The notes: generated from the letters alone by a model not told the origin. A stretch of 35,162 bases of DNA from an uncultured bacterium (GCA_964389345.1 CAYMER010000070.1:1-35162); one strand, 5' to 3'; shown: positions 1 through 35,162, numbered from the stretch's first letter. Numbers and translations are program-made.

Positions 1-3000
1 TCGCTCCGGCTTCAGACTTCGCAGGGACGGATTCCGGACGGACCGTGCTTTCGGGCTTAAGCAAAGAAGCTTGGACCGCATAACTTTCCGGCGTTACTTT
101 GGGATCGTGAACAACATTTCCTTCTGTCAGGGCGCTTCCGACCATTTCCCGCGCCCAGGCCAGGACCCCCGTCAGGAACTGGTTATCCTCCGGCGGTCTC
201 ACAGCTCTGGGAAGATCGTTCGGTTTCCACTCGGCCTTCCTGAAATCTGTGATCGTGCCTTTTTCATCAATTGCAAAAAAGAATTTCCCGAACTTGGGAC
301 CGACTTTGAAAACGATATCCTCACCCTCATGCATCTTGACCCAAAGTAAAAGATCAAAGGTCACCTGCTTAACAAAATCGCTTTGGGTCGCGTCATAGGT
401 GAAATGCACGAGGTGTTGCCCGAACGGCACATTCATCTCCGCGAGGATCCCCGATTGAGCCTCGTCTTCAACAACCCCGATGTTCCCGACCACATGGATC
501 TGCCGAGTTTCCGAACGGGCGTTTTGGATTCCATCGAGAAATTTGCGGGCGCGGAAAAAACTTTGACTTCCCTTGCGGCCGCCGGAAACAAGGTCCCCGG
601 CAAGAAAAACTTTCGCCATCTTCCGGACGCCGGCATCCGGAGAAGAAACCTCAACGGCGCGCAGTGCGTCCCGCACAGCTTCCGGTTCCATGGTTTTCAC
701 CCGAAGTGCCGAACGGGCAGGAGTTGTTTTTTTCTTAAGCAACAAAAGCTGGACGTGGTCGCCGTCACCGCCGAACGGAATACGCAGGGTCCAGCCCTGA
801 AGCAGGTCGTCGCGTTCTCCGTAATCGATCCCCGCCAAAAGATCCTGCACCCGATACGCGGTCCCCGGTTCAATGATCTGCTCAAGACCGGCCGAGACCT
901 GGGTCGATACTTTTCCGTCGCCCGCCGCGACTTCACGGCTGGCGGCATCGAGCTGGATCGCAGCCACAACGACATCTCCTGAAGCATTTTTTGAGGCCAA
1001 AACAAGCGAGCTTTTATGCGAAGAATCCAACACGTAAAAATGATGTTTCCCGGCCCGGGGCGCATCTTCTCCCAAAGCAGTTTGGATATTCGCCAGGGCG
1101 TGACTAAGCCTTGAATGGAACGAAGGATCCCAGGCGGAAACCCGCGGCGTATTCAACAGATCGGGTCTGAAAAGACCGATGAGCGTCATCGTAGGTCTTA
1201 TTTTATCCCCAAAAAAATCAGCGGCTTCCTTGGGATCATCGCTTGCCAGGATCTCCAGCTGCTCGAAAAGATGGTTCGATGTAGGCGCCCCTTCCGGAGA
1301 CTCATAGCCGGTTCTTGCCTGGCGGATCAAATGCCTGAGAGAAGACGCGTCCTGCTGTTCTTGGAGACGGACGGGTTCCAGGAGGCTGTTCGAAAGCAAC
1401 GAATACGGAACCGGCTGCAGCTCAAGGATCTCAAGACCCAGAGGCATGGGAACGCCGATCCCCAGCACGGTCACGGGATTTTCTTTTGCATGGATCCTGT
1501 GATTTTTTCCGAGTTTGGGTTCCCTCACCTGGACGAACCGCACATCGGGCGCTCCCTCCACCAGCAGATTAAAAGCGGCGGCATCGATAAGGACCTGGGT
1601 GCGCGCCTTGTAACCTGTAAAACTCTGTTTTTCTTCACGTTGAACGGGGGCCCCAAGATTGAGATCCACCAGCACGGGCTTTCTGCCCTTGGCTGCGAAG
1701 ATAAAAGACTGGATCTTTTGATCATGGGTCCTGAGAGAATGCGCATTCGAATGTCCCTCAAGATAGCGAGAAATGTATTCGGCCCACGGTTGATAAGTTT
1801 CCCCGGTGCCCTGCGTTAATTCGTCTCTCAAGGCTTTTGCCTGCTCCGGATCCGCTTTCACATAGCGCTCGAACCAATTCCCTGCCATGCGCACCAAAAG
1901 CATTTCTGTAAGGTCCATGGCCTGTAAACTGAGAACTATTTTTTGTTTTTCATCGGAGTCGGCCGTTTCCCTAGCCATTTGTTCGATCCTCTTTCTTAAA
2001 GGATCCACTCCCGGAGACATGCCCTGGAGACTCGCCAGGATATATTTAAAAACGTCTCCCTGATTAACATGATGTTTCAAACTGTCCAGGGCATCCATCC
2101 CTCGCGTCGCCTCTGGGTTTTTCGGATCAGACCGCTGCCAGGTTTTGATCTCACGGAAAGATTTGAACATGCCGAAAAGCCCCATCCCTCTTGCGTAATG
2201 CGTCCTTCCGTCCCGCATCCCCTGCCAAACGAAATCAGCGGCTTTCATGGGCGCGGCATAATCCGAAGACTGGAAATGGAGCTGGCGGAACAACGCTTCG
2301 CTCTTTTCCTCATCCTCAAGTGTCTGTTCGAGCAAATAAGCGTGGGCCATGGCCTGGCCGGTCACCATGTCCACTTTCCAGGAAGCCGCTACGGATTGAT
2401 ACATGCGTTCGCGCCGTGTTTTGGGATCAGAACGCAGCGTCTTGATCTTTTGCAGGGCTTCCACAAGACTTACCACGGACGGACGCCGCCCGCCGCCCTC
2501 CTGAGTGCTCCGCTCATTGTCATCGTACCAGACAGGAATTCCGTTCAAAACCTCCCACTCACCGCGCTTGACACGCTCCCGCATGATGTCATGAGTAATG
2601 ACCGTTTTGTTCGGCTCGCCTTTGTCGTTCAAAACCCGGATGATTTCACCGGTCCGGATATCGCGAATGACCCAGACCTCGGGATTCGCCCCGCCGAAAA
2701 CGCCCATGACCTCGCCGCCGTTCGTTTCATTCTTTTCCATGCTGGTGGCCGAAGCTTCCAGGTCCTCATCGGAAAGCATCATGCCTCCCTCCGTTCCGCG
2801 GAAAATGATCTGGGCTTCATAATACGTGTAATCTTCCAGCGTCCCGATGCGATCCTCCAAGCCGAGCAGTTCGGTCAGGAAGCGGATATAAAGGAAACGT
2901 TCATGGGCGTCTTTCAGGTTAAAAGTCCGGCCGCCGATCAGCAGCCGGCCGATCGTTCTCCTGAGTTCCTCGATCGAGCGCTGATCCTTTAACCGGCTGC

Positions 3001-6000
3001 GGAGCACCTCGAATTCATTTTTGTAGCGTTCCTCGTTCTTGTCGATGCCGTCCTTGTAAGCTTTCCAGAATCCGAAGAGCGAAATGAAAGGCCTCCAGGG
3101 CTCATCCTTATCATCATAATTCTTTTTCTCCCAGGGAACATGGACCCCCGCCTCGGCGCCTGCTTTCGTCACGACCTCTTTCAATTCCTGTTCATATTTG
3201 TCCGGTCCTTTATAATCGACCTGGCGACGGACATTGGCAACGACCGGATCGTTAAGAAGCAGATCGCGGACCTGAGAAAATTCCGAATCGAGCCTGGTCC
3301 AATCTTCCGGCCGGTTCTCCTGGGCCGCTTTTTTGACAAGAGCCTGCATTTCTCCCAGACGAGCCAACAGCTGGTCCATGCTCATGTTGTTTTGTTGTAT
3401 ATAATCCTTGAACGTGTTCCCGAGCCAGTCGCGTCTTCCCGTAAAACCGTATTTTTCCCGGAGCCAGGTCAAAAGGGTTGCCGCATCCGCGGCGCTCACC
3501 CATTCGTTCTCGGATTTAAAAATCTCGCGAAGGTCCGGATGTTGGTCCAGGATCCCAAAGAATTCGCGGTCATTGGCTTCCGCCGGAAGTCCGTACTCGG
3601 GAGCAGGCGTCGCAAGCGTTTTCTTGTGATGCTCGATGACCGCTCTCCGGTCAGGAGACTGCCAGCGCGGGAGGAAAACACCGTTCGTGCTGCGGATCTG
3701 CTGCTTGGCATCATAAAAACCGCGGACCTTGTGCCAGGCGGTTCGAAAAATGTTATTGAGGAGCGCGGGAAGATGTTCCACAAGCCCTACGCCCGAGATC
3801 AGATGAAAGATCTCCGCCGTAAAATCCGCAATGCTGATCTTACCGTCATGAACGATCGTTGAGCGAAGCCACTCGGGAAACCCGAAAAAACCGTAATAAC
3901 CTTCCCAGGCCTCAAAAAGACCGGGGCGGAAGACCGTATGATTGAGCGTGGTCCGTTTCACGCGCTTGAGATGTTTGAGAGGAAGGCTGACAAAAACTTC
4001 GTGGTCGAGAAGGATAACATTATCCGGATCCGGGTTGCCTTCAAGATGGCGGATCAGAAGTTCGCTCGCCTCGCTAAAGGCGGCCATATGGATCTCGCGC
4101 ATCCCCGTATCGTCATACACTTCATCAAAGAAAGGTTTTTCTCTTCCCTCGGCGTCAACGGTGTACCCGTCCAAATAATGTTGCGGCGACCGGTGTTTCT
4201 CATAATAGGTCTTGTAGGCCCGGAAATAGACCGTGGCCGGGGCGTTGTTGATAACCGTTTGGACCCGCAATTTGACCGGGGTCAATTCCATGGCTTTTTT
4301 GACGATCTCGCCGAAAAGGATCCTCTGTCCCTTCGCATCCAGTCCCTTGACCGGCTTGTTCTTGATGAAATTCCAGAGAGGGTGGATGCCGGTCACATTC
4401 ATCCCAATCGCGGCCCAGGCTTCGAACAGATCGGGCAAGAGAGCCCCGAGACCGCCTGTTAATGTTGTTTGCGAAATTTTGCCGGCCGTGTAAGCATCGT
4501 ACAATTCCTCTATTTTTTTCAAAACGTGCATGGGATAACCGGCCTCGAATTGCCGGCTGTAAACATGCCTCTTCGCCAGCTGAGGAGTTTTCGCTTCAGC
4601 CCAGGTCGTCCCTTCTTCCGCCCGCATCTCGGACCTCGCCGGAAGCCAGGCATCTTTTTCAATGGCAACAGCGTCGCTCGCTCGCAGTTCGGAGCGCCTT
4701 CGCAAAAGACTCATTTCCCCGGCAAGAACCGCATGCGCACTGCTAAACTTCGCGACAAGGTCACCCACGGAATCCAAAGCCCGCGGATGATTTCTGCGGA
4801 GAATGTCCTCAATGATGGCCTTCATAAGGTACAAGCGGCTATTGGGCGTGAAATGGAATACCGGCGGCGCCCCTTCTTCTTGCGTGACGAGCCCTTTCAA
4901 TTTTAGCGCCTTCACGAACATCGCGAAAAGCATGTCCTGCGGGTAGTTCGGCGGTTTCATTTTTTGATAATCAAGCAGGGCGACAAATTCATTCGGCATC
5001 AGGACAAGATTTCCACCGTGGTAATCCCACCGGCGCACCCCTTCCCCTTCCAGAACGGAGGCCACTTTTGACACGCGAACCATGACGTTAAGGACGTGAA
5101 GGAGATATTCTTTTTCGGGCAAAGACTGTATCTCTTTAAGGTGGTGCTCCCAATCCAGTCCTTCGATATAGGGATAGACGATCGTGAGGGCCTCAGAACC
5201 AGCCCAAAGAGGCATGGCCTCTCCTGTGCTGGTTTTAAAGGCTCGTACCGCTTTAAAAAGAAGCGGGTTATAGACGCGGGCCTGGACGCCGTGCCTCGCG
5301 AGGATCTCATTGGCCAGGTTCCTCGGCTCCGTCCGGTTCCCGAGCGCGGACATCAGCCTTTCGATCGCTTCCTCCTCCTGCTCCTGCTTGTCTTCATCAT
5401 AGAACCTCTTGATGACATAGATCCTGCCGGAAGGATCCCCCTTGATCGTCGCGCGGTAAAGCTTTGAGGGACTGGACGACGACTTCGAGATCTCTTCAAA
5501 AAGAACGAAGGTTACTTCGTCCTCGAAAGAGCTATGGGGCGCCTGCGGCCGCATCACAAGCATTTCGTCCATTCTCCGGTCATGCTTCTGGTCCCGGATC
5601 CTCCAGGCCGCGTGAAGATGATCGAGCACTTCGGCGCTTTGAAGCATCCACCTGTGGAACTGGCCGGGTTGCAGCTTGAAATAGATCTTGGCCGCGGTTC
5701 CCTGAATATTTTCGAGCCGGACATTCTGTCCGACATAGAATTCCTGGCCTTTTCCGCGGCCCTCCTCCGCAAAAGGGTCCCAGAGCCAGAAATCGCCGAA
5801 GGCCTCCTCGATCGTGGCGGACTTGAGGTGGGGCTGCCTTTTTAAATAAGCGTTCTGTATCTCGGGAAAGTCGTTCAGGTCCACATCCACGACCCCTTCC
5901 CGTAATTCTTCCGAATGGTTATCAATCACCAGGAAGCGATTGGTAGAACTGGTCTCCGGAGTACCGAGGAATGCTTCCACTCCCGGCCTCGAACGAACCA

Positions 6001-9000
6001 CCAGCTCTTTTTCCTTCTCAAAAACAGGACGCTTCCCCGTGGAAAGCATTTTGGAATTCACAACCTGTTCCCATTCCCCCATATCCCGCCGGATTTTCGA
6101 AGGCGCTAACACCTGAGAATCCCCGACTGTCGGACGGACAGGGGCAAGGCTTGCTCGCAGTTCGGAGCGGGATCTGACCTCCGGGACCTCCGAACGGGAA
6201 ACAAAAGAACGGACCGCGGAGTTGATGCGTTGAAGGGATTCCTCGCGCGTTGTGAGGATCTTCCTGAGTTCGCCCGCATGAACCAAGCGATCGATCCATA
6301 ACAAAAAGGCCGCGGGAACGCTCAGCACGACCGCCACTTCTCCAAATGCCCGGGTCAAAAGAACCGTCAGAGCGATGACGCCGCTCCAGTAGATCCCGTT
6401 GACTTTCAGGGAACGCCAGAGAGACGGTCTTAAACCATTCGCAAAACGCGCAAGCAGGGACAATATTCCATCCATATCCCGCTGAACCAAAAACCCGTCT
6501 AGTTCTTTACGATACTCACGAGCCTTGAAAAACCGCCCCCAAAGCTCGAGTGCGCCGTCATGGTCCAGCATCTCGAACCGGACCTCCCGGTAAAAATCCT
6601 TCCGGTCCAACTCACCTTCCGCTTGTCCCCGCATCTCGGAACGATTGACGCGGTCGATGACGACGATGCGATAGAAGCGTTTTGCAGGAAGCGCGCCTCC
6701 CGTGAAACTGCCGTCGTCGATCCAGCTCGCGACCGTACCGTCCGCCACGATCCCACGCTGCACAAGCTGCCAAGAACCTGTTTTGAGATCATCCCGGTAT
6801 TCGATCTGATAAACAAAATTGGTTTGGGTCTGGAAGGTGACCTTGAAGTTCCCGTTCGTTTCTTTAAGCCCCTGGATCACCGGCGCTTCGACCGACACGA
6901 GCGCCTGCCGCCGCGTGGCATTTGGATCGATGCTTAGCGTCGTTGTTGCCGTAATTGTCGCAGTCGTATTGGTTTCGGCAAGCGCACCCGTCCCTTTTTT
7001 TGCGATCATCGCCCACCCGCCGTTATAACCAACGCTTCTGATTTGGGTGCTGCCTAAAGCTTCAATGGCCTGATAAGCTTGTTCCACACGAGGATCAGGC
7101 CACGCTGAACCACCAGGGCCTTGGATAAATCCTCCCTCTTCGGCAATCGCCATAATGACAATTTTTCCGTTAGGAATACTATTCAAATAGCTTACAAAGG
7201 TCGGAAAATAAACGTGCGGATGGCCCCATACGTCCCCTTCCATAAAATAAGTATCAAAATGTTGAAAATCTTCCATACGATTTCCAGTATAAGAATCCAG
7301 CACCGCAACATTGATCCCGCGGCCGCCTTTATCTCCGCCGGCGCGCGAAAAAACGGTTTTACCATTTAAGGTAAAGACCGCGGGGTTGCCTGAAGTCGCG
7401 GTCATCACAGGATTCGTCACCAGAGGAATGCCGTTTTGACCGTCCAAAGCAAACCTCTGCTGAAATGCCGGGACAACTAGCTTCGGTTGGCGCCCGATGT
7501 TAAACCATCCGAACCATTTTTCGTCGTTGTAGCCGTCCGGCTGACCATAATTCACTTCGGTCGAGTAGCCCTGACTTCCGGTGTAACCGCCTTTATACCA
7601 TTCATCCTGAAATTCAAAAGCAAGCGCACCGGATACGATCCCGCCCGTTCTTTCCGCGGCAAGATTGAATAATATTTCATCCCAAAGACCGATATTGAAA
7701 TCCCTCTGCATGGCCTGATCTTCGCTGCCGCCATACATCGATGTGTGTTTAAAGGAATCCGCGCCGAACTCGGTAACAAACATGGGCTTGTTCGAGATCC
7801 TCGCCCATTGGGAAAACGCATCCGTAAAACTTGCATTGCGGTAAAGTTGCAGCCCCCAAACATCGACGCTCGGGACCATATTACCGATAATCTGGTTTGA
7901 AAAATAAACCGTTCCGTCTGTTGGTTGCCATGGCGCAATATCGGGTTCCAAGTAATGATAAGTGCCCCAGGCGGATGTCGTTTCTGACATGGGGATATGC
8001 AGGTCTCCGTAAAAACTGACAACAGGGTGATTTGTATCGATCGATCTTACGATTTGGGCTGAGCGTTCCGTAAACTGAGCCGCAGCTTTTATATCGGGAA
8101 AAAACCCATAATAACGATTAATATCCCACTCATTTCCGATACCCCAGCCAAAGATCGCCGGGTGATTTTTGAAAGCGTTCACGACCACTGGGATATTGTT
8201 AGAATTGGCCGTATCGCCGTAATAAGGTGCGGTCGCCGGCAGAATTACTTTAATCCCGTACTTGTAAAACATATCAAGTACGGCCTTGGCTTCGGCATTC
8301 GTTCCCATGTCGTAATAAAGCCTTGCGACATTAACGCCATTGCTCGCCATCAGAGGAATATCATTGGTGTACCACTTAAAGAATTCTTGACGAAAAGCCG
8401 GCGCGTTAGCCGCAGGATCCGAATTTGTGGAGGCTGGGCTCCAATTCACACCTTTTATCGTGAACGCATAATTCGTCCCCAATGTTCCGTCTTGCTTGCG
8501 TTCTTTGACAAAGATCCGGCGATCGCCGGGCTGGGTATAAACTTTCGTCGGCTGGGTCGGAACGCCGAATGCGCCGGCATAAGTTTCTTGGGCCCATCCA
8601 AAAAACGCCATGACGCCCATGAGCACAAATTTCATCAGGCTTGTCCGCGCCTCGGAACGGACAGACCCTGGACGAGGAGCCGCGAAAGAAGCGTCGTTCG
8701 ATTGCAGAAAAGCATGGACCCTGGCCCGCTCCGCGCCGGTCATCTCCGGAGTCCCTTGAGCGACCCGGCTGGACGGGATCACTTGCTGGAATCTCAAGGC
8801 TTCCTTGAGTCCCGCGATCTCTTGAGTCCGGCCGGCGGTCAGTTCCGGAACGATACTGCGGATCCGCCTCTGGATCTCTTCAAGATGCTTTCCGCCGAGC
8901 CCTTCTTCGACAAGCTGTGCCGGCAAAGGGCTCACATTTCCGAACGAGGACACCGCGCCGCGCGCGCCCAGGATCAGCGCATCATCGATCGCAAATTCAT

Positions 9001-12000
9001 CGCCCGCATAAACAGTGAATCCATAATTGGAATATTCTTCCGTCAGGTGTTGCGGCCCTGAATTTTTAACGAAGGCGACCCGATCCGCGATCTCGGCGAG
9101 TTTCCGCGCAGGAATATTCTTTCCTTGGGAGAGCGCGGGATTGTTGTAAACGCCGACAGGCAAAGAAGTGGCCATTCTGCGGAAATGATCCGGGATCTGC
9201 CCGGGATCTGCCAAATAATAAAGAGGACAAACGACCAACGCATGAACACCCCGGAACGCCGAAACTTCCTGGATATTCTTCAAGGTCTGAGCTTCGGTGT
9301 TACCTGTCACGTTCGCGTGAACGATCATTTTCCCGAACGCTTCGGCAGCGGCTGCCGCAAAAAGTTCGATAGCCTGCAACCGCTGGTGATTCGTCAGTTT
9401 ATCGAACTCTCCGGTGCGACCCATGACAAAAATCGCGCGGGTCCCCTGGCTGATAAGATGAGCGACTAACTGCCTGATCCCGGTTCCATCGATCTTTCCG
9501 TCATGGGTGAGCGGCGTGATCACCGGAACGATGTTCGTCGCCGGGGTTACATCGCGCCAACTCCGCGACTCCTGCCCGGAGCGATTTTCGCTCCGTCGCG
9601 CCGTCTGAGGAACTTCGCGCCTCGCCTTCCTTTCCGGGCGGCGTTTCTCAGCGAAGATCTTTATTTCGTTTTCCCCGGACCCCGTCTCGGCCTGGATCGT
9701 AAAATGAATGTCCTCACCAAGATCGTGCATGGCTCCATAAAGAATCATGCTCTTCCTGTTCCAATCCTGCACTGTAAGCGGAGCATCGAAAGACTGCTCC
9801 TGGGCACCGGCTAGAAGAGTGATTCTGAAAAATCTTTCTTCGCCTGCGAGGCCCCTATAAACCAGGTCCCTGATACGCTCAAAAGCCGCGGAAAGGTTCC
9901 CTTCGGCCCTCACTTCAGAGCGGCTGGCGGCGACATTCAGCTCCACGCGCATTTTGCTGGGATCGATCCTTGTCGTGGGATTATCCAGGATCCCTTGCAT
10001 CAGTTCCTGGGCGCGCTCGGAAATGGCATCCTCCGTCACATGGTCCGCAGAAACGGTTTCCCCTGTCCTTAAAACCGTGAGGGCCTTCTCGAGATAGACA
10101 AAAGCAGACGGAACGGAAAGGTCGAAATTATTGTAGTTCTGAGCCGGATGGGTCACCCACCTCGGAAGTTCCTGACCTCTCATGGAAGTTAAAAATGCTT
10201 CGAGTTTTTCCGCCGTCAGGTCTCCTTTCCGGATAGCCTCAAGTTGTCTCAAGGCGGAACGGATCATCATCCCCGCCGGCACAAGATATTCCCTCCGGTC
10301 CCCGGGCGCTTTGGAAAGCTTGTAAGACTGCCGGGCCAGAGGGCTTTCGGAAGCGGCCGTAAATTCTCGGATCGCTTTGTCCATGAAACTACCGGCCTGC
10401 GCCGCCGCAGCCTCGGGCAAAGTCCTTGTTTCTTGTTCAGAGCGATTTTCGCTCCGGTGAGGCTCGTCTGCCTTCGGCAAGGCGGCAGCGCGGGCTTCGG
10501 GACGACCCTTTTCGACAAGGGGGGCCACGATCTGCGATTCCAAAACTGTATGGGTCCCGACGGCAGAAGAATCTTTTCCGTCTTTCCTCAAGAGATCTAA
10601 AGTATTGTTCAAGTCGGCGACCAAAAACCCAAGGCTTGTTTTTTCATCCAGAATTTTTTCATTCGCCAGAAAAACGCTTCCTTTGTTAGCCAGGGTCGCC
10701 GCCGTCCGGCCCGCTTCTTTTTCCAGGATCCTCGCCGTTTGTTCCGGCAAAGTCCCGGTTTGGCGCCCCTCAGCTGTAAAAACAAGAAGGGGCTCGAAAT
10801 CAAAAGAATAAACCTGCAACAACCAGCGCCGCGCGTTTGCAAGCGCTTCATCAACCTTTCCCTTTAGTTCGGATGAAAGGCCGGCGCCTGTTTCCTTGGA
10901 AACGTCACTAAAAAGTTCGGTGATTTTAACTTCAAGTTCCAGCCCTTCGGCCTCCAGATTCCTCCGGTGGTTCGCCTTCCCCGTTCCGCTTTGGGTCATC
11001 ACTCGCGGCAATGCGGCGTCGCTCATTTTAAGAATGGCTTCCTGGATCCCGGCGAGCCCTTTTTGAGGGTCGATGCCTAAAGGCGGTTCCGGCCCCCAAT
11101 GACGGCTGTCGACGAAACGGTCCGTTACATCCAGAAGCACGCGGAAGAGGAAGTATTCTGCTTCTTCCCGCGAGGACAGCGGGTGATTCTTCCCGAGCTT
11201 GTTCGTGATCTTCCGGAGTAAGGGGCCTGTTATGCCCGGATGACCCGCCACCATTTTCTGAATGTCCTTGAAAATATCGTTCTCTGCCAAAGCGATCAGA
11301 TTCGAACTCGCTTTCATAGCGTTCTGGAAAGTCTGGTAGGTCTGAAGGGACTCCTGGCCGGAAACCGTCATGTTTGAGGCGGTAAAAAAAGCCGGCCGTC
11401 CGGGCTTGTGCCAAAAGTCGAAGAGGATCCATCCGGCCCCTGCTACCGCCGCCACCCCGGCAAAAAGGGACAAGCCAACGAAAGCCCTCCGCCGGTTTTG
11501 TTGCCTTGCCTGTTCTTTCTGTAATTGTTCGCGGCGCGTGGCTGCTTGTTGCCTTACCGTTTCCGCTACTAATTCGCGTGCCGACGCCTCGGCTGCTTTC
11601 GCCTGCTCGGCTAGTTGTAATCGTTCTGCTTCTTTCGCTTCCGCAGTTCTCAATTTCCTTTGAGCATGCTCTTCCTCGCTCACGATCTTTGCCGGAAGGT
11701 CGCTCGGCACGGTCTCCCCTGTTTCCCGTTGAAGTTCTTGGAACAACTTTGTGATGACTGTTCTGTCAGGAAGGGTCAGCAGGACTTCGGGCTCCACGCG
11801 CGGGTCCGTGATACGAAGCAGGTCTCTTTGCCAGTACACCAGAACCGCTTGCGGATCTTCGGGATCTCCTTTGAAATGATTCGAAAAAAGAGGCCTGCCG
11901 TTCAACGTTGCTGTTTCGTCCGTGCCTACAGTTCCGGCCGGAAGCTGGAACTCATATTCGAGCGAGACATTGCCGCGCAGATATCCCGCGATAGTTTCCG

Positions 12001-24000: not shown

Positions 24001-27000
24001 GGTCGCGCAGGATATCGAACGCGATCTCAACGCGGGACCTGGGTTGGCGTGGAGCCGGCGCCTCTTTGTCGCGGGATCCGGCATCTCCTTGACCGCTCCC
24101 AAGCCCGACCTCATTCACGCGCACTGTTATGGAAGCGCTTCCGCTGATCTGAATAGAAACGGCGGCATTCGGACCTGACACAGCCACCCTGACCAGATCC
24201 CCTCTTACTTCGGAGCGAGAATCGACAACATCCTGGCGGGGCGCACGGTTTACAGCAGACGCGCGCGAGACATCAAAGGCATTGCGGACCACGTGGACCA
24301 GAACGGTGTTTGGAACCAGGAAGAATTCGGCAAGCCCGCGGTCGTTGATGGCATCGACGTCCTGCCCGGAACGGTTTTCGCTGCGGCGGGGAGTGAACAT
24401 GATGTTTTGGATGTTCCGGACAAGCTGGCTGTTGGTCATGGCTGCGATCCCGAGGACCGTGGAACCGGTCATTTGTTCCAAATTCCGCACTGCTTGCGCC
24501 GGCGTGGCGATGCGAGGCGTTTCGATATGAAGGGTTTTCCCCTGTGCACGCGTATGACCCAGCCCGTCCCGCGTCTGGATCCGCGCCCTGATCTGGAAAA
24601 GGATCCGGTCAACGGCGATCTCCAGACTGGCCAAAGCCCCTTCGACCACCGGTTCCCACGCGACCAGCTGGGCGTTGATCCGTTGGATGAACGCCGGCAC
24701 GAAGAAAAGAATGATCCCGGACCGTGTAAGGTCGGTCCCAAGTCCTTGAAGAGTTCTTAAAAGACCGCGGCGGAAATCATGTTCGTGGAAGGTGGATATC
24801 AGGAAGACGTCGTCGGGTCCCTCCGCGAGGTCGATTACCGGCGTCCCGATGCCCAGTTTGACCACCAGAAGCTTGGCGCTTTCGAGACTCGCCTGGGTGT
24901 TCGCTAGGCCCGAATCGCGCGCAAGTTCCTCGTTCAGAAGGAAGAAGAACGGATCAAAATCGACAAAAACATCAGGATTGTTCTCTGCCGGTCCTCCTTC
25001 CCACACTTGCAAAATCCCGCGGATGTGCCGGATAAACGACTGGAGGACGATCAGCCCGACCCGATCCCCTCCCGAACGCAAGAGTCCCTCGATCCGGTCA
25101 TTAAGGGCCTCGAGCTTTGCGCGAAGGGTCGCGGCATTCTCTTTTGTGATCTTTTCCCCGGATGCATGAAGAATATTCAGGATCTCTCTCGTGGCCGGAA
25201 CAAGGATCTGCTCCATTTCCCTCATTTCACTCCGGACCGGGGCGGCGGGAACTGCGCTGAGTTCGCGCGGACGGATCGGGAGCGGGGTTTTGAGGTTTTC
25301 GGCGAATTCCGTCTGCAGCATACGCTCAACGACCGGGACTGCGCGCAGAAGACCGGCCTGGATCGTTTCGAGCGGGATCTGACGGTCATAGATCCAATCA
25401 AAAACGGGCTGAAGCATTTTGGAAGAGCTCTCGGTCCGGGAGATCACTCTGCTGATCACTTCGTCCGAGATCTCTCCGTTTTTCAATGCTGAGAGAACCC
25501 GCGCCACCGCTGTTCTTTTCTGATCCGTGATCCTTTTCCTCATATTCCCGGCGGAGTAGAAGATCTCCCCGACGATTTCTTTCCCCAAGACCTCCCAAAG
25601 GACCAGCCGCTCATAGATCGTGGCATTGGTAAAAAGATACCGGCCCTTCGCCCTTCCTTCATAGGCGCCCCAAAAAGCATCCACAAGCGATTGGATCGTC
25701 TGACCTTCTTCAAGAGTTTCTGGAATCTGCGGCAAGGTGGCCCGTTGGATGCTGCTTCTCCATTGAGGGGCGACGTACATTTTATCAGGCGCCTTGGTTT
25801 GAAGTCCTTCGCGCTCAATAGTCTCGATCGCAGCCGCGGCCCGTTTCATGGTTTCCGGCCAAATCCGCCGCAAAGCCGCCCACGCGATCGCCCTCTCCCG
25901 GGCCTTATCCGCTTCTGTTTGCTGCTCTTGTTGAAGAGAAGCGGCATTCTGTTCTTCGTCGGCGAAACGGATCGGCATTCCCATTGCTTTGCTGGCGTTC
26001 AAAAAATATCTGCTGCCATTTTTTTCTCCGTCAAAACGGATCTCGATGAAAGGTTCTTTCCCATGGCCAAGGGATTCGACGACCCCGACTTTCCCGTTCC
26101 GCGTCACACGTACTCCGGGCTCGATCCCTTTGAGGTTCCGAGGCACTTCGTTCCCCACCCGGATCTCCGAACGAACGTTTGAACGTTGTAAACTCGTTAC
26201 ATAATTTTGATAAGTGGCGACAAAAGCCGCGGCTGCGGCAGCCGTGCCGGCGCCCGTCAAAAAGGAACGGGCAATGGCCTGAAAATCCGCGGCGTCGCGG
26301 ATTTTCAAGGAACGGAACCCCTCGGCCGTTCCTTTCGAGATCTTCGTGAGCATTACAATATTCTTGGCCGCGGCCTCGAGCGCGATCTGCTTCTGATGCG
26401 CTTCCTGGATGGTTTTACCGCCTGTGATCGCGCCGTGCTTGGCAAGGAGAAGCGTCGGGTGGCTTTTGGCAGCCTCTCCGACAGCCACGGCAAGAGGCGA
26501 AAGCCCGGCAGCATAGTAATCAATGGCGGCCACTTCTTTCCCGGGTTCCCCAAGGGATGCTATGAGGGCTTTCCTAAGTTCTGCGATCTGTTGATTGATG
26601 CCGCGCAAAACCGGAGACATGTCGATCATCTCCTTCATCTGCTGATCCAGAATTTCGTCGCGTTCCGCCTGTAGCGCGGCAATGCGGGTGGCGAGCGCCG
26701 TACAATAGATCGGATGCCCGTGTTCAAGCGCAAAAGCTTCGGGCCTTGCCCGGTAATAGGCCAAATGGAACATGGTTTCAACGCTGGGTCTTGCGGAATC
26801 ATTCTTCCCGGGAAAACCTTTGACCTGTTCGCCGGTCACGGCATCAACCACGACATAGTCCTCAGCCCCCATGATTTCTTTTGCTTTACCGCTCGCTTTA
26901 ATAATCATGAACCGCCGGTCGGCGGTCAGCGCGCTGATATTGCCGCCCGGCCCGTCCACCATCCTGCGCGCGGCCATATCCCGTCCCACTTCAAGCAGAT

Positions 27001-30000
27001 CTTTGCTACGATCATTGATCTGTCCGGTATATTTCAGAACCTCTTCGGCAGTCGCTTGCCTGCTCGGATAGGCCTTTGCCGTCTTGAGAGCTTCAAGATC
27101 ATGGCTCAATTCGGCTTGCCGCAACCGTTCGACGCCATCGAGCATCAGGACTTGGAAATCATCAAGCTCTCCGACCGTCCCGAGAGTTTCTTCGGCACCA
27201 AAAACTTCGACAAGGCTTCGCGTAGTCTTGCCCCTGAAACGAGCCTCGAGTTCGTTTGTGCCGATCGTGATCGTGCCTTCGAGTGTCAGGACCGTGGAAT
27301 GCTCTTTCAGCGCCGCAATGACTTCGTTTACCGCAGCGTTGCCTTGTGTTCTGACGACTGGAATATAACCTTTCTCGTTCAACACGGCGATCTGTTCAGG
27401 CACCAATCTGCGGAATGTCTTGCCTGCTTCCGCAAGCCGGGCCGCATTCGAATCCTTATACTGGAGCACCCACGAGCTCTTGTTTTTCCCCTCTCTAGGA
27501 TCGGTCTGGTAATGTCCAAGATGCATTCTGAAATTCACATCTGCGATCGATGCCGCATCCGTCTTGATAGAAGCTTGGACCATCTTGCGGTCCGCGGCAT
27601 CTATATAGAAGACCGTATCACCGTCGCGGTAGCTGACCTTCGGAATCTCAAGACCGTTCGCCTCATATTTTTCGATCAGGGCCAGCAGAAGTTTCTCGGT
27701 AAAAATCACTGCGGCGGCCGCCGGAGACATTTCCACGGCAGGCTCTTGGACTCTTTGACGGACCTCTGACCGATTGCCTGTTGCGGCGAACAAGGCGCTC
27801 CTTTCGCCCTCTTGTTTCAGAAGCCGGTTGTGCTGTCCCCAAATAGACCGCAAGGCTTTGAGCTCAAGTTGCCGCGGTCGCTCACGGCTTAACAATCCTG
27901 CTTTTCCGTCCGCGCGATGAAGGAGCTCCCCTACTTCCTCAAACGTTAAGAAGGAATCGGGGCGATAAGGGTTCCGATGCTGAAGGATGATCCGCTGATT
28001 TTCGGTCAGCGTTGTCATCTTGGGCAGGACTGCCGACTCAAAAATAGGGTCTTGTAAAAGCGCATAAACTCTTTTCTTAAAATCCAAAACATCCTGCCCG
28101 ATCCGGACTTTTCCCGTCCTTGCTTCTGAACGAGAACGGCGCGTCTGGGACGACGTCGCGGGGGTAATGACAACATTGGAGCCGTCAAAACTAAGGACGC
28201 CTGCTTTTTGAATGATGATGCGCGGACCGATCCACACGTCATCTCCTTCGGGCAATGGCTGATCCGGAACGATCGGCTCGTTTTTGGCTTCGATCTTCAA
28301 GGCAAAGACCTCGTCGCGCGAGAAGCGGAGCGCTTTCCCTCTGGCAAGAAATTCCAGCATACTGATCGCTTGCGTTCCAAGGTCTCCGGCGTTTTTTATT
28401 TCCGGAAAAACCTTTCCGTCCCGGACAACAACTTCTCCCAGTTCGATCCAGCGTTTCCCGGGGGGACTGGTGGGATCATAAAGATAGGCTGGCAAAAGGG
28501 TCTCTTCAACGCCCTGTTCTTTCGTGTATTGGGCGAAAGCCGCAGCCATCCGATCGACAACCTCAGGCAACGTTTGGATCCTTGCGGTGTACGGCCCTTC
28601 GACATTTTTGGGTAACGCCGCGAGTTTTGCGCGTCCCGGAGTTTCGCGGGCCATGGCCTCCTCCGCTCCGTCTTGCTCCGCAGTTCGATCCATATCCTCA
28701 AAAAGCGCCCGTACATTGAGAGGCCTCGCCTCCGAGCGCGCGGAACCATTGACAGGCACGCGGCGGGTCCCGGCATAGATGCGGATCTCGAGGCCGGCGT
28801 CGACCGGTGTCACCGTAGTCGTAAAATCCACGTTTTCACCAAGGACCGTCATCTCTCTCGCGAGCCTGCCCTGAATGATCTTCCAACTCGTCGCAGTGAC
28901 CGGGCCGTTAAAGACCCGGCGCTCTTGTTCATCTAGAAAAAGCACGATCCTCGTAAAAGAGTCTGTGCCGTTCGTTAAAGCCTGAATAGAATCAAAGACG
29001 GAAGCGAAACTCCCGGGATTCGCGGCAGCCTCCGTGGCCGGATCAGTCTCCGCGGGGAACCTTCGTGCCTCCGCAGGCGAATTCAGGAAGCTGCTTTTTC
29101 CGGTCCTCACCTCCGAACGGGTTCCAGCAAAAAAACGGGCGATCGCTTCGGGTGCCTGAGAAAAATCGGTGATCACAAAATAAGGTCTTTGCTCCGGAGG
29201 GAGCGCCGCGATAGCGTCCAGTTTTTTCGGATCATTCTCGCTAAAAAGGACCCCGACAACACCGGCCTCAAGCCCGTTCCGGACATCTCCGAGCGAATCC
29301 CCTTGCATCATGATCTGGCGCGGAGCAAGAGAATCCTGTTCTATAAGATGTTTCAATACAGAGGCTTTCGTCGGGAATGCCTCCGTTGCGCCGTACCGGT
29401 CCTCCGGCAGAAATAAGTCTTCGAACCCGAGTCTTGGGATCTCGGCTTTCACGCCGGCATCCGCATAACCGCTATTGACCACGAGCCGCACGCCGCGTTC
29501 TTTCAAAGCCCGGAAAAACCGCTCAGCCCCGGGGATCAAAACTCCTTCCTTTCCCAATGCCCGGATCCGTTCCAGCCTATATTGTTCCAGCTCTTGAAGC
29601 CATTCCCCGACATAGACCCGGACAGATTCTTCGACCGTGAGGGTTCTCCCTGCGGCATCTTTTTTGAGCGGCGCGCCTTGTGATAGCATCCACCTCGCAT
29701 GGTCGAAATCATTATTGGGACTTCCGAATTCATCGACATAAACCGCGACAGCCGGTTCGACCCCGGCTTTGGATTTTGCAGGATTTAAAAGGATCCGGTC
29801 GGCTAAGAATTTTTTCATGCGGTCCATCCATCCCTGTGCAGAAATAGAGAACGTGTCATCCATATCCGATGCCACGGTAGTGACTTCCAAGGACAACGGA
29901 GCGCCGGGTCGCGTCACCCGGAGCAGCCCCGGAACACCGGTCTCCTGAAAAAGATTCCTCATTGCCGCCGGAATAACGCTTTCTTTGATCTCAATCAGGC

Positions 30001-33000
30001 CGTCCTTCACTCCGTTTGCCTGAGCCACGTCATTGACCAAAGCGGCAAGCGCGGGATAATCACGTTCGAAAGCGGCAAGTAACGGTTCGAGAATTGTTTG
30101 TAACGCCTTGATCCGTTCATCGTCGAGCGGCTTTTCCGGCGAAACCATTTCCCGGATTTGCTGATCGGAAAGACCGAGGAGACCTTTTACGATAAGATTT
30201 ACAGCCCGCGCGGCCGCTCGATTGTTTCTAGCGACGATCATCTTGAGAGTTCCTGGATCCCGCATAAGCAGATACGACGTGTTCCATTTGTCAAGCGACT
30301 CGATCATGCGCCTGCTACGTAGGTCATGGGCCCGCCGGAGCGGCCTTTTCAGTTCCGATAGAGAGCGAAGCGATGATTCAAACTCTTCCCTGTTTTTCTT
30401 GAGACGCTTCACAACATCCCCCGCGTCCAGATGAGACCCTTTCCTTGCCGTCTTCTCCACCGTCTTCTCCAACGGACCGAAAGCCTTCAAGATGCGGAGC
30501 GCTTTCCGGATATTGCCTTTAAGGCTCGCAATTTTTCCTTCCCTCGCCTCCGAACGACCGATGGCCAAGCGGTTCAAGGCATCGGCGATGGCAAGGTGGT
30601 ATTCGTCATAAAATTTTCCGAGGAAATGTTTTGTTTTAGGCGGCGTTTCTTCTTCGTCCGCCGGCCCCATCTCGTTGCCATAGCCCATGTCGCGGAGCAC
30701 CTTTTCAACGGCCCTCTGAACGCTGCCGTGAAGCAAGGGAAAGACGCCGGCCGAATGAAACGTTTTGGCTAAGTCCGCGGGCGCCATCTCCGGCTCCGCG
30801 GAAAGTCTCTTGGAAAAATCGTCCGGATCGATCGTCCTCGTTTCCGCTCTTGGGGGAGATTGCCGGGCATTACTTTCAGAAGCGATCAAGGCTGTGGGCC
30901 CCGGGGCGACTGGCGCAAGAATAGCGCGGGGCTTTTTTACGTCTGTCGGCGCTTGCCTCTTGGCATCGAGGGGATCATATTCAACCAGCGTCACGTTGAG
31001 CTCGTGCCCTTCTGGAGAGGTGATCCTTAAAAGCCGGCTCAGATCGGACGACATGGATCTGATCTCCGCGGGATCGCGCGGCAGACGTTTCACCCAACGG
31101 ACATTATTACCAAAAAATTCCAGGATTTCCTGAGGATGAACCTCAAAACTGAGACTAATCGAAATGGCCGCTGAGGAATCTTTCCTTTTTAAAGTGATCC
31201 TGGGTTCTCCAAAAATTTTTACAAATTGAAGCATCCGGTACTGTTCGGGATCTTCAAAAAGATCCCCCGTCTTCGCAAGAAACTCCGTCTGGAGTCGTCC
31301 TGACCGAGAATCCGTAATCCGCCAGCCTAATTGCCAGAGAATTTTTCCGGAGGAGGCGACTGTAGAGAAAGAAGGGCGCATTTGCCGCTGAATCGTCGGC
31401 AAGCCGAAAACAGCTTTTCCGCCGTCAGGTTCCGTCCATAGAACGTAGCGGTTCTCATCTTCCGGATCGCGAGGGAAAAGCGTATTTTGCGGAGACTTCA
31501 AAAACCGGAAAAACTCGACAACACCCGGGAACTCCAGCGGATTCGCAACCAACAGAGCCGTTGCAGAGGTTTGCAGAGCGGTTTCTCCTGCATCTTCCGT
31601 TCCAGCCCTTATTTCCGATCTTGGAGGAGATTGCTTAACGCCGCTTTGCAGCGCGGCTGGCCCGTCCGGCTTTGTCGTGTCAATCGTGCGCAGCGCCCCC
31701 TCTGCCTTCGAACTGTCATCTTCTTGTGCGGGCGGCGCGCGCTTCGCCTTTGTTACCAGAAGCAGAAAGTAGAGGCCCCAGCCAAAGGCCATCCCACTGA
31801 AAAGACCGAGCGCTCTTGAAAGTAACGGAAAACCGGAAAGAACCGGGAAAACCGCGCGATAGAAAAAAATCAATGGAATCCCAAGAACAAAAGCTGCTAA
31901 AAAACCCAGAAACATCATGTTGAAAGAATCAAACCTGGTTTTTTTCTTCCCTTCTTCTGCTCCCGAACGGACCTCGGAACGTTTGTTTGTCCCAACGAAC
32001 TCGTTTTCAATGTTGTCGTCGGCAAGGATCTTACGAACGGCTTTGTTGGCGAGAGCGACGTCGCCGAGAGCTTTTTCAAGCTGGGCCTCATAACCCGGCC
32101 AAAGTTCATCAAATTGCCCCGGTCTTTCGTACGCGATCACCTGGCGACCCACTTCGCGCATTTCGGCGCGGCGAGAGGCGAGTAGCGCTTCGCCGTCGGG
32201 CAGAGTGCGGATGAAGGGGATGTCGCTTGAGGCTGAGGCACCGATGTTGCTAGCCGGTACGGCGGAAGGCGTACGGCGTCTTTGTTTTGACTTTCGCCGT
32301 ACTCCGTACGAACCGAGCAGCGATCGAATATAGTTTTTCTCATCTTCCGCCCTTATCTCACCAATATTGGGAGTAATGCCGATATAAGAACTCCCGGAGG
32401 CGGTGATCTTTTCCTTGAAACCCTCCGCGTGAAAGCCGCCGGTGATAAGAACGGCTTTTTTGTCTTTCCGTGCGCCAAGGATCTTCATGGCGTTTTGCAT
32501 CATCGCGTCTTCTCGCGTGATCGCGAGTTCGTAAAACCGGGTCGCAGCCCCAAACAAAGAAGTGATAGGCGCTAATTTGGAAGACCCGAGTTTTAGACCC
32601 GCCGCTATTTTCTCCGGTGTGATCTTTTGGGATTGAAGCTCCCGGAATTCTTTTCGGCTAAGCTCCAACTTGAAAAGTTTTTTAAGAAGGCGGTAGCGAC
32701 GAAGAATCTCGACGAGCTTCTGATCTTGCTCTGTTTTGACAAGCCGCACGGTCATTTTTTCGGTCAGGGCCCCGATCTCCTCCTGAAGCTGCTCACTTTG
32801 CAATTCGCTCAAGAGAATCAGTTGCTGAAGATAAAGCCGGAGGTTCGGGTAAGGGTCAAACGAGAAATCTTTGGGCAACTGATCGAGGAGGCGTTCGAAA
32901 ACAAAGCGGGTTTTATAGAGCGGCAGATCGCCAGCATTCTTGTGATCCAGAAGCTTTGTGATCTCCTGAAGAAGGGTTGCGGGAACCTTCCGCGCCCGGA

Positions 33001-33904: not shown

Positions 33905-34108
33905 GAAATGAACGTTTGTCCTTTCGGGATTTACCTAGGGAAGACTTAATCGAAAGATAACACATATTCTTTAAATTTCAAGGGGTTGAAAAAGGATTTA
34001 TCAAGGTATGTTTAAAGCCATTTGAAGAAACCCCCTATTATGATCGGTCGCTATAAATTGCTAGAAAATGAGCTGGAAAGCATTAAGAAGAAAACTTTCT
34101 CCAAGCTA

Positions 34109-34137
34109 TTGATTTTAAACAGGTTCTGAGCTATAAA
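34109..34137 (+). promoter_or_regulatory. Sigma-70-type promoter candidate for the plus-strand gene
   Basis: TTGATT (34109-34114), a 17-nt spacer, then TATAAA (34132-34137). The predicted transcription start is near 34144. The consensus is borrowed from model bacteria and the host is unknown. Confidence 0.3.
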
Positions 34138-34287
34138 TATAAGGGGTCGGAGCTTTTCCCGACTCACTCATCCTGAGCCTGCCGAAAGGCAGATCGAAGG
34201 ATCTCATTCGAGATTCTTCGGCCCATTGTTTTCTTGCGAAAGCAAAAAGCAGGCCTCAGAATGACGGAACTATCAAATCGAATTCTC

Positions 34288-34292
34288 GAGGA
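34288..34292 (+). promoter_or_regulatory. Shine-Dalgarno candidate for ATG 34297
   Basis: GAGGA lies 4 nt upstream of ATG 34297. Confidence 0.4.
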
Positions 34293-34296
34293 TGTT

Positions 34297-35130
34297 ATGC
34301 CAACAAAAAAAATCTTCACTGTTTTTCTTTTTTTGATTATCACGCTCGTTGCCGTTCCGCTTGCGCTGAGATCCGAAACGCCTGAGCCTAGCGCCGACAC
34401 TTCCCTTGCCTTATTGAATCTCGCGGTCCCCGAAGAGATCGGGAAAGTCCAGGAACGTTTTACCGGAAACAGTGCAAGGACGATCATTCAGATCCAGGAT
34501 GTTCACGCGCACGCCGCAGCCCAGCAGAACATCGCAGCTATTCTGGAGCGCCTTCGTGTGGTATTTAGCATTGAGAAGGCCGCGCTCGAAGGCGCTTGGA
34601 CCGCCACTTCCCTTCCCGAAAGTCACGCAATCCCGACCTCTCGTGAAAAACAGCTTCTCGCCGGAACCCTGCTTGAAAATGATCAGATTTCAGGGCCGGT
34701 CTATGCCGCGATCATGTCCCCGGAACCGATCACGCTGATTGGGATCGAAGACAAAACGTCCTATGAAAAGAACAGGACTCTTTTTCTGGATCATTTCAGG
34801 CAGACAAAAGAGATCGAGGAAAAACTCCGTGCTTATGGAGCGTCACTGCAAGAGTTGCAAAGATCCGCCTGGGGACCGGAGCTTTTGGCCTTCGGAAATG
34901 CCTTCGGAAAATTCCGGGACACCTCCGACCTTGGAAAATTTTTTCTGGTCCTCCTCAAAGCCGCAGAAAACCAGAGCGTGGATATTTCCGACCTTGCTCA
35001 GATCCTTTTGCTCCGGGACATTATGGCCTTGGAAAAAAGCTTCGAAAAGGAACGCCTCGAAGCGGAGGTCAAACGGGTCATTAAAAAATACAAGAACAGG
35101 CCCTGGACGATCGAAGAATTGATCCGAGGC
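34297..35130 (+). CDS. Exported or membrane-anchored paralogue of the giant ORF N-terminal module (partial, truncated by the contig end)
   Basis: The frame is open from 34177 to the window end, so it is not in the ORF track. ATG 34297 gives MPTKKIFTVFLFLIITLVAVPLAL, a signal/anchor sequence. An in-frame ATG at 34261 is the alternative start. VPEEIGKVQERF..RTIIQIQDVHAHAAAQQNIAAILERL..EKAALEGA aligns with IPAEFGKITDII..PLLIHIQEAHANYDAQKNIKAILEHL..KQIFLEGA of the giant ORF. The last 32 nt of the window are adapter and are excluded. Confidence 0.75.
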
Positions 35131-35162
35131 AGATCGGAAGAGCACACGTCTGAACTCCAGTC
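35131..35162. other. Illumina TruSeq adapter remnant (sequencing/assembly artefact)
   Basis: AGATCGGAAGAGCACACGTCTGAACTCCAGTC is the exact first 32 nt of the TruSeq read-through adapter. Confidence 0.93.

Follow-up and report, generated by a model that had tools for sequence, protein, structure and literature searches.

An R-[S/A/P]-E-x-R motif at the module boundaries of giant Omnitrophota proteins, a candidate polyprotein processing or recognition site

We analyzed a 35,162-nucleotide stretch of DNA from an uncultured bacterium (GCA_964389345.1 CAYMER010000070.1:1-35162; hereafter, the window), which encodes the N-terminal part, at least 11,301 residues long, of a giant modular protein of Candidatus Omnitrophota with a signal peptide, a head domain and about 35 enzyme-sized modules. 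The boundaries between these modules carry a pentapeptide, RSExR in its strict form. The pattern R-[S/A/P]-E-[aliphatic or small]-R is no chance feature but a selected recognition motif between modules; it appears not to have been described before and is conserved within one family of Omnitrophota giant proteins. The motif is very probably read by a dedicated factor, and we see an even chance that this factor is an endoprotease that releases the modules.

The motif and its place between modules

The giant protein is encoded on the minus strand, as are all of its features described below. Its frame, starting from the ATG at 33904, runs without a stop codon to the left edge of the window (1..33904; 11,301 codons), and the C-terminus lies beyond that edge; the other five frames contain 146-472 stops. 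An artefactual open reading frame (ORF) was dismissed, because the frame is open over 33.9 kb and has homologues in 26 metagenome-assembled genomes (MAGs).

A regular-expression scan of the protein recovered 34 in-frame RSExR sites, at the same coordinates and with the same distribution of x (A 11, V 8, N 4, I 3, M 3, L 2, T 2, Q 1) as in an original prediction made from this DNA. With the measured frequencies of 7.68% R, 5.65% S and 8.21% E, the expectation for independent, identically distributed residues was 0.31 sites, and 2,000 shuffled versions of the protein gave a mean of 0.30 and a maximum of 3, confirming the claim that fewer than one strict match would arise by chance. The tripeptide RSE occurred in 38 copies, 34 of them within RSExR, and SE.R occurred in 35 copies, 34 of them with R in front. 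All six Ser codons were in use, as were all six Arg codons over both Arg positions, and nearly all the 15-mers were distinct. Because of this codon diversity, the signal lies at the peptide level, as had been proposed, and a dispersed DNA repeat was ruled out. The residue following the motif was S, A, E, T, G or Q at 30 of the 34 sites, in agreement with the small or polar residue noted there earlier. Ser had been taken as obligatory, and it is present at all 34 strict sites; however, RAEMR at residue 579 (32156..32170) proved to be a genuine orthologous site, an Ala variant with RSEMR in P0181 and RAELR in P0026 (P and L numbers denote related proteins and loci).

When the chain was cut at the motif, 35 pieces of 20-1,373 residues were obtained, with a median near 250, which is an ordinary protein size. 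Ten Pfam families scored above their curated cut-offs, with one copy each, and all of them lay between two sites. The Pfam matches were HAD (residues 1343-1548), Aldolase_II (2302-2514), ATP-grasp_5 and Succ_CoA_lig (3522-3739 and 3923-4055, spanning 3522-4055), His_Phos_1 (4985-5156, 18437..18952, E=4e-24; module M18), HATPase_c (5698-5819), MraZ (5973-6025), DHDPS (8125-8400, 8705..9532), a weak GH2_C (8565-8718) and ILEI (8862-8971). The DapA-like DHDPS match (PF00701, profile positions 6-286 of 289, E=3e-28) exemplifies a complete enzyme fold framed by two sites, one 16 residues before it and the other 15 residues after it. The C-terminal segment of the window protein, M34 (503-4621), had been described as GT35-like; it instead matched Glyco_transf_5, weakly in the window (E=0.012) and at 1e-49 in orthologues, with weak Phosphorylase (GT35) matches to M34 in two orthologues only. 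Most modules had no sequence match in Pfam, NCBIfam or PDB. The best NCBIfam value for M10, M16, M26, M32 and the C-terminal tails of relatives was E=4e-4, far below the cut-off, PDB and NCBIfam searches with the head or M34 gave no match, and neither did a PDB search with M16.

The placement of the sites between modules, as originally asserted, was further upheld by modules that are homologous from motif to motif. M10 (24371..25219, 283 aa, no known domain) and M23 (14720..15577, 286 aa) are paralogues with 54% identity over the full module; their alignment begins directly past one motif and ends at the next, and the sequences outside diverge. A module of the M10/M23 type is present also in L005, and a genome scan using the M10/M23 alignment found no relatives. 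M05 (28724-29104) and M28 (9581-9907), which are 31% identical, form the second and last paralogous pair.

The sites are given here from the N-terminus, by the number of the first motif residue and its coordinates. The first strict site, RSEVR at 642 (31967..31981), was followed in the scan by RSEIR at 762 (31607..31621), by RAETR at 1019 (30836..30850), a possible Ala-variant site, and by RSEAR at 1117 (30542..30556), next to the start of an L005 homology block at 1116. RSEVR at 1596 (29105..29119) stands after the HAD domain, and beyond it were found RSEAR at 1723 (28724..28738) and 1925 (28118..28132) and RSEVR at 2045 (27758..27772), where the L017 homology block ends at 2050. RSEIR at 2578 (26159..26173), overlapped on its upstream side by a degenerate RSNVR, coincides with the start of the L024 blocks (2577/2578). 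M10 begins at RSEMR 2891 (25220..25234) and ends at RSENR 3174 (24371..24385), with RSEVR at 3230 (24203..24217) after it. RSEAR at 3493 (23414..23428) precedes ATP-grasp_5, while RSEAR at 4249 (21146..21160) follows Succ_CoA_lig, and two more scan hits, RSEAR at 4341 (20870..20884) and RSEVR at 4466 (20495..20509), lead to RSEAR at 4792 (19517..19531), at which the P0096 homology block starts exactly at the motif in both proteins. RSEVR at 4941 (19070..19084), which immediately precedes the confident His_Phos fold, is matched in the alignment by motif copies of P0021, P0024 and P0030; RSEQR at 5187 (18332..18346) lies between two folded modules; and at RSEIR 5264 (18101..18115) the P0026 homology block starts at the motif in both proteins.

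In the following part of the chain, the scan found RSETR at 5513 (17354..17368), and RSEAR at 5963 (16004..16018) lies between HATPase_c and MraZ, where the L010 homology block starts at 5963. M23 extends from RSENR at 6105 (15578..15592), which has a degenerate RSEAG nine residues upstream, to RSEVR at 6391 (14720..14734), where the L007 homology block begins. After RSEAR at 7136 (12485..12499) and 7219 (12236..12250), a possible Pro variant or decayed copy, RPEAR at 7801 (10490..10504), stands 16 residues before the strict RSENR at 7817 (10442..10456); RPExR is the exclusive form in L015. The L004 and L009 blocks start at 7995 and 7992, at RSEVR 7995 (9908..9922). The DHDPS match is framed by RSENR at 8104 (9581..9595) and RSEAR at 8416 (8645..8659), and RSEMR at 9088 (6629..6643) is near the end of the L009 homology block at 9092. 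RSELR at 9246 (6155..6169) has a degenerate RSEVP nine residues upstream, and RSELR at 9737 (4682..4696) is followed by RSEMR at 9757 (4622..4636), the N-terminal boundary of the GT5-like M34, which was aligned with R[SA]ExR in 11 of 11 orthologues whose upstream sequences are unrelated. The last site is RSETR at 11130 (503..517).

The degenerate copies listed in the original prediction were all present in the protein. Several degenerate or doubled copies adjoin strict sites (RSNVRSEIR, RSEAG..RSENR, RSEVPEVRSRSELR and RSENRSEQE, at 26171-26185, 15605-15619, 6182-6196 and 10430-10456), and two strict sites enclose a "module" of only 20 residues (4622-4696). The decayed and doubled copies and the 20-residue module resemble remnants left behind when modules were lost or the motif slipped.

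The local environment of the sites was examined by disorder and structure prediction. With the motif masked, the disorder propensity centred on the sites was elevated from about -16 to +8 (z up to 5) and fell below background at +16 to +20, as expected at the start of the next fold. In an AlphaFold2 (AF2) model of the head, built from a 17-sequence alignment, RSEVR at 642-646 was in coil with a predicted local distance difference test (pLDDT) score <50. A model of residues 4780-5280 (26-sequence alignment) gave a confident His_Phos fold with pLDDT >90 over most of its length; the sole dip in pLDDT below 50 between this fold and the next mini-module, at model positions 408-413, coincides with RSEQR at 5187-5191 (model positions 408-412).

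Conservation of the motif and constraints at its positions

A word-indexed protein search with a 936-aa query covering M09-M12 gave no match, and the same type of search with the DHDPS module returned only ordinary DapA proteins of about 28% identity. A HMMER scan with residues 4335-5520 retrieved long proteins having the His_Phos module at 40-46% identity, and RSExR or a variant was the most over-represented pattern in several independent Omnitrophota proteins. RSExR and RAExR numbered 10 and 0 in P0021 (3,259 aa), 10 and 2 in P0024 (3,239 aa), 6 and 6 in P0030 (2,618 aa), 12 and 3 in P0031 (5,975 aa), 7 and 0 in P0096 (2,349 aa), and 1 and 18 in P0026 (6,292 aa). Every relative whose source is named is an Omnitrophota/Omnitrophica MAG (e.g., HRK61150.1, HNX67865.1 and OGW88931.1). 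In further Omnitrophota giant proteins, too, the motif encloses the His_Phos module; in P0021 and P0024 it stands on either side of the module, just as it does in the window. The N-terminal head of P0026 is 50% identical to that of the window protein, and the alignment stops at the first site in both.

A scan with the head alignment, in which each GTDB species was represented by one genome, identified 26 loci with the head, 19 titled as Omnitrophota/Omnitrophica MAGs and 7 as "uncultured bacterium", the best being 71% identical. Over the first ~3,850 residues of the giant ORFs with a close head, the motif was the top or near-top enriched pattern in nearly all, with 3-14 copies vs ~0.1 expected, and the ordinary ORFs adjoining the giant genes contained 3 copies in 37,683 residues, which is the chance level. 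The search of related giant ORFs thus showed the motif to be enriched across the family, in at least 25 species. Module content and order differ strongly among these species. The head and M34 alone are widely shared; M34 (1,373 residues) ranks second to the head in breadth of conservation, and 14 of the 26 related loci have it at 25-68% identity. Of the ends of BLAST homology blocks, 42% in the window and 39% in the subject were no more than 10 residues away from a motif, vs 7% for random positions. At the M34 boundary, compared in 12 species, the upstream sequences are unrelated, R[SA]ExR is aligned in 12/12, and a variable stretch of 10-25 residues precedes the conserved domain. Since the upstream sequences are unrelated and the downstream linker is variable, the motif is conserved independently of both its neighbours.

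Position 2 varies with the lineage. Most lineages have Ser, P0026/L022 have switched to Ala throughout, and L015 has Pro at each of its 12 sites. In the head tree, proteins of mixed S/A type (L024 and L008) and the S/A/P protein L020 stand near the Ala/Pro lineages. A role of Ser as nucleophile or phospho-acceptor was rejected in view of the occurrence of Ala or Pro at this position in whole lineages. Taken together, a motif that is strictly conserved, changes in concert within a genome and passes through tolerated intermediates is what would be expected from co-evolution with a single reader.

Some long Omnitrophota proteins lack R[SAP]ExR and bracket the same His_Phos module with other enriched short motifs. 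One class is D-x-A-M, with 8 copies of D.AM in P0113 (0.33 expected; DRAM five times) and 7 each in P0023 and P0095; DRAMN in P0090 and SAAM in P0022 are of the same type. Another class, [A/G]-x-S-L-G, occurs six times each in P0159 and L028, both of which have a distant head. Boundary punctuation, therefore, looks like a general property of Omnitrophota multi-module proteins, with at least three classes that would form lineage-specific "alphabets", and the alternative motifs in other lineages strengthen the reading of the pentapeptide as a recognition site.

Subsite preferences were determined on 300 sites pooled from 29 proteins. Position 2 was S in 236, A in 46 and P in 18 of these sites. 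The fourth position, which had been taken as free, was instead aliphatic or small, being A, V, L, M, I, T or S in 278 of the 300, and Pro was observed there once vs 13.5 expected, and likewise at the position following the motif (+1). Among all flanking positions, +1 carried the most information. It was S, A, T, G, E or Q in 207 sites vs 116 expected (p=6e-26), L, F, Y or W in 17 vs 57 expected (p=4e-11), and L, F, Y, W, R or K in 31 vs 96 expected (p=8e-19). The last six are the residues that destabilise a new N-terminus under the bacterial N-end rule, and exclusion of Pro together with a small residue is typical of P1' of proteases cutting after Arg. Because +1 is almost devoid of Pro, small or polar, and poor in N-degron residues, we infer from these sequence statistics that the chain may be cut after the second Arg.

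The giant protein, its ends and its head domain

The chain begins with a predicted Sec-type signal peptide or signal anchor (33803..33904), which has a basic n-region, a hydrophobic core and A-Q-A, with a putative cleavage site between MNCLKRLQRILAGIIVVTFFVTNTLTPAPIAQA and AN. Residues 2-24 were modelled as a helix by AF2, and the signal segment is also conserved in orthologues. Cys is rare, with 10 of 11,301 residues (0.09%) in the window protein and 0.11% in orthologous giant ORFs vs 0.71% in the ORFs adjoining giant genes (loci L004-L026). Cys depletion and the signal peptide suggest that the chain is exported, is translocated unfolded, or functions outside the cytoplasm.

A hydropathy scan found nine hydrophobic stretches downstream of the signal peptide. 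Paired hydrophobic helices, each forming a hairpin, occupy the small modules M02 (31607-31966) and M14 (20870-21145), single strong stretches occur in M20 (about 17450-17510), M26 (11420-11480) and M31 (6320-6380), and weaker ones in M08 and M10. The chain or its released pieces would be expected to cross the membrane several times.

The conserved head domain spans residues ~35-535 (32300..33802; AF2 mean pLDDT 76.8) and is common to the 26 Omnitrophota loci. In the alignment, H74 and E102-G103 are invariant and R464 and GGFH492 nearly so. An N-terminal module of Tiki/TraB type had been suggested earlier, and the conserved His/Glu/Arg/His constellation fits that assignment; the match to PF04187 (ChaN, Tiki superfamily), however, was below threshold (E=1e-3, 19.6 bits vs a cut-off of 27.7, 43 residues covered), and in Foldseek EreC and BcR135 were listed with probabilities of 0.13-0.16 and TM scores of 0.21-0.26, none of them significant. 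A PDB profile search with the head alignment gave nothing. Some motif-bearing proteins (P0030 and P0096) lack the head, so that these would need a reader acting in trans.

At the other end, complete motif-bearing proteins share a conserved region of ~110 residues with a final ...[A/S]RSA, xSA or xAA (YLATARSA, YLARSA, VSHSA), found in P0026, P0031, P0096, P0024, P0030, P0170, P0186, L011, L020 and L023. The C-terminal 260 residues of P0026 and L011 had no NCBIfam match, and the tail may serve in sorting or mark the protein for degradation. Upstream of the giant gene, 1.26 kb (33905-35162) contain no ORF >127 aa, no tRNA and no Rfam match. At the P0026 loci, a divergently transcribed gene of 713 aa lies ~350 bp upstream of the giant gene, and no dedicated protease was found among the genes adjoining P0026. 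The plus strand antisense to the giant gene in the window has long ORFs of up to 537 aa, e.g., at 13229-14842, 21140-22186 and 26714-27769, and the frame with the fewest stops (146) is a plus-strand one; these ORFs are probably not genes in their own right but a side effect of the giant ORF's codon structure.

Readings of the motif and known systems

In the reading that we favour, the motif would be a linear recognition element in short flexible linkers between modules, read by one sequence-specific endoprotease that cuts after the second Arg. The subsites would be P5 Arg, P4 Ser/Ala/Pro, P3 Glu, P2 aliphatic, P1 Arg and P1' small or polar. Such cutting would make the giant chain a polyprotein or multi-effector array from which the modules are released separately, and it might take place in the cytoplasm, the periplasm or a prey cell. 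In the original proposal of a polyprotein processing or recognition site, the recognition part is borne out by a motif that is peptide-level, junctional, linker-placed, family-conserved and constrained at +1; no cognate protease was found, and cleavage stays predicted. More tentatively, at somewhat below even odds, the ultra-small Omnitrophota, thought to be predators or parasites, may express dozens of enzymes as chromosomal polyproteins cut at lineage-specific motifs (R[S/A/P]ExR, DxAM, [A/G]xSLG), in a virus-like mode of expression or a MARTX-like delivery of an enzyme toolkit into prey.

Several observations weigh against processing by a protease, which for this protein is predicted from sequence alone. 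The 11,301 residues contain no peptidase Pfam domain, and the search for a cognate protease in cis came out empty within the window protein. A JAMM-like protease in M16, suggested earlier from an HSHP stretch, was rejected, as the stretch does not fit the JAMM signature (HxHx7Sx2D), which is absent from the protein together with HExxH. A Peptidase_S8 (subtilase) module (E=1e-13) was detected in only 1 of 12 orthologous N-terminal segments (one of L004-L018); it is a possible cis-encoded candidate for a protease cutting after Arg, although a regular-expression search did not pinpoint it. The head is possibly a Tiki/ChaN/erythromycin-esterase-like hydrolase and makes a weak candidate for the reader. 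The linker position expected from structure prediction was matched by the disorder peak and by sites 642 and 5187, but sites 579 (AF2 helix 571-593), 4792 and 5264 were placed in predicted helices of low to moderate confidence. Some linkers barely exceed the motif in length, and access of a protease may be limited there. The signs of export, moreover, suggest a clash with the many modules of ATP- or DNA-dependent, normally cytoplasmic kinds, such as the acyl-CoA synthetase-like module, the histidine-kinase ATPase and MraZ; the same topology puzzle was remarked by West-Roberts et al. 2023 (bioRxiv 10.1101/2023.11.21.568195). As a speculation, both sides could be reconciled if enzyme modules were delivered into prey in the manner of MARTX toxins.

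The codons at the sites form a further point on this side. The first Arg was encoded by CGT or CGC (CGY) in 173 of 227 sites from 22 genes (76%) vs a background of 40% (p=8e-28), and the excess persisted when the next residue was controlled for (background 43%, p=4e-24). The last Arg was depleted in CGY (29%) and enriched in CGG, AGG and AGA, a trend seen in most of the 22 genes. This asymmetry goes beyond what selection on the peptide alone would produce and leaves room for a translational or nucleotide-level layer; such a layer (CGY for the first Arg, NGR for the last) might time the event during translation.

An alternative that shares the dedicated reader is that the motif is read but not cut, serving as a docking or modification site for a chaperone, a secretion factor, a scaffold partner or an Arg- or Ser-modifying enzyme, while the chain stays whole. 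Strict conservation, concerted drift and linker position would fit this equally, no protease was found, and the giant protein of V. archaeovorus has been proposed as an extracellular coat, as cited in Seymour et al. 2023 (PMC10066038). Phosphorylation or glycosylation of Ser, on the other hand, is made unlikely by the Ala or Pro of whole lineages, and the near absence of Pro and the scarcity of N-degron residues at +1 suit a new N-terminus and make no obvious sense for docking; we consider the uncut chain unlikely. The strong differences in module order among species and the breaks of homology blocks at the motif would also be expected of a junction signature for in-frame module swaps by microhomology recombination, with little or no role of the peptide. 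The decayed or doubled copies (RSNVRSEIR, RSEVPEVRSRSELR) and the tiny modules (20-92 aa) could then be scars of gain and loss, and CGY at the first Arg with NGR at the last across 22 genes indicates some nucleotide selection. However, a 15-nt stretch that varies widely between copies, with Ser encoded in six ways and the codon for x free, offers too little identity for homologous recombination, the amino-acid conservation spans lineages whose heads share 25% identity, and the constraint on the +1 residue is left unexplained, so that we regard this explanation as quite improbable.

We attach equally little probability to a passive structural linker, i.e., a charged hinge or helix cap that separates domains without a dedicated reader. 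Very short linkers often consist largely of the motif, three sites were predicted helical, and S, A or P followed by Glu is typical of helix N-termini. Yet two Arg and one Glu are invariant in the 300 sites with neighbours below 0.3 bits, whereas passive linkers vary widely, and physics alone would hardly account for whole-lineage switches at one position or for the unrelated DxAM and [AG]xSLG in the same place. The position-specific synonymous codon asymmetry in most of the 22 genes could also point to a co-translational signal, such as a ribosome pause for folding at each module boundary or, at the extreme, 2A-like skipping of peptide bonds. Known arrest peptides are much longer than the motif, the bias in codon use is not absolute, and no such boundary pausing or skipping is known for bacterial ribosomes, which leaves this explanation very improbable.

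The motif supplies the first concrete candidate cut sites for the question of whether Omnitrophota giant proteins are chopped into enzymes, a rule for splitting them into modules for structure prediction, and a handle on the reader enzyme, as the motif class should co-vary with the reader. Existing proteome data can be re-searched for this purpose (PRIDE PXD025008, Ca. Velamenicoccus archaeovorus, genome CP019384, which encodes a giant ORF of 39,678 aa). If the polyprotein reading is true, the motif marks the exact module boundaries in proteins of up to ~147,000 residues. Should cleavage be confirmed, no more extensive polyprotein system would be known from any cellular organism; with an uncut chain, the motif would still define a new type of inter-domain recognition element.

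Omnitrophota giant genes of up to ~147,000 codons are among the largest known, and published work has left open whether their products remain one chain or are cut up. Cleavage of giant proteins by C39 or S8 peptidases was suspected by West-Roberts et al. 2023 (bioRxiv 10.1101/2023.11.21.568195), who stated the cleavage points to be unknown, and missing cleavage points are said to block structure prediction and functional dissection of giant proteins. The window protein resembles the "multi-enzyme metabolic cluster" class of a 2026 preprint on 229 complete Omnitrophota genomes (bioRxiv 10.64898/2026.06.07.730766) in being an Omnitrophota ORF of >10,000 residues with many enzyme Pfams and no dominant repeat, and, as in other Omnitrophota giant multi-enzyme proteins, transmembrane segments are scattered and most of the sequence lacks a known domain. 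That preprint describes the class, of which the window protein is a member, and the words "motif" and "cleav" are absent from it. The papers on Omnitrophota giant proteins differ from our analysis in reporting domain content and speculation on cleavage without a boundary motif; none is described in West-Roberts 2023, the 2026 preprint, Seymour et al. 2023 (PMC10066038) or the Lipocone paper, although it may be mentioned elsewhere. Neither RSExR nor its variants appeared as a motif name in the literature searched, where string matches were chance occurrences within other words. With the archaeovorin/dockerin-type giant proteins (West-Roberts 2023), the weak Glyco_transf_5 match is the only domain in common, and no dockerin, TSP3, HEAT, C39 or SecA domain was found by Pfam in the 11,301 residues, the C-terminal part lying beyond the window.

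The statement in the original prediction that no characterised bacterial system works in this way was too strong. MARTX toxins and the gingipain/HagA polyproteins are partial bacterial precedents for processed polyproteins, and the mechanism of polyprotein processing is itself known; what appears to be undescribed is its employment by a cellular giant gene on such a scale and with this motif. Viral polyproteins (picornavirus 3C, flavivirus NS2B-NS3, coronavirus 3CLpro) likewise combine many folded enzymes in one ORF with a lineage-specific linker motif followed by a small residue, and have different motifs in different lineages. The present gene, in contrast, is chromosomal, cellular and at least 10 times longer, with modules that are far more reshuffled, no cis protease found and cleavage that is only predicted. 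In the polymorphic toxins, a short peptide (VENN in CdiA, PxxxxDPxGL in Rhs) also marks a point of module exchange, but it does so at one junction beside a C-terminal toxin with an immunity gene, whereas at least 30 junctions and no immunity genes are found here.

The precursors of Porphyromonas gingivalis RgpA, Kgp and HagA are secreted, multi-domain and cut after Arg or Lys at domain junctions; they differ in their few domains, a specificity that is essentially P1, a protease within the precursor and the lack of a pentapeptide. MARTX toxins of Vibrio and relatives have a C80 cysteine protease domain, glycine-rich RTX-type repeats and a type I secretion signal; neither the protease nor the repeats were detected by Pfam here, where the modules resemble metabolic enzymes more than known toxins and an N-terminal signal of Sec type is present, and the C-termini of the window protein's relatives carry a different conserved tail. 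Their processing sites are loose (Leu followed by a small residue) compared with the strict pentapeptide of the window protein. Common to both, however, are a huge size, conserved ends, a central array of modules that varies between strains or species and few Cys residues, and secretion and processing in the linkers, known for the MARTX toxins, are predicted for the window protein.

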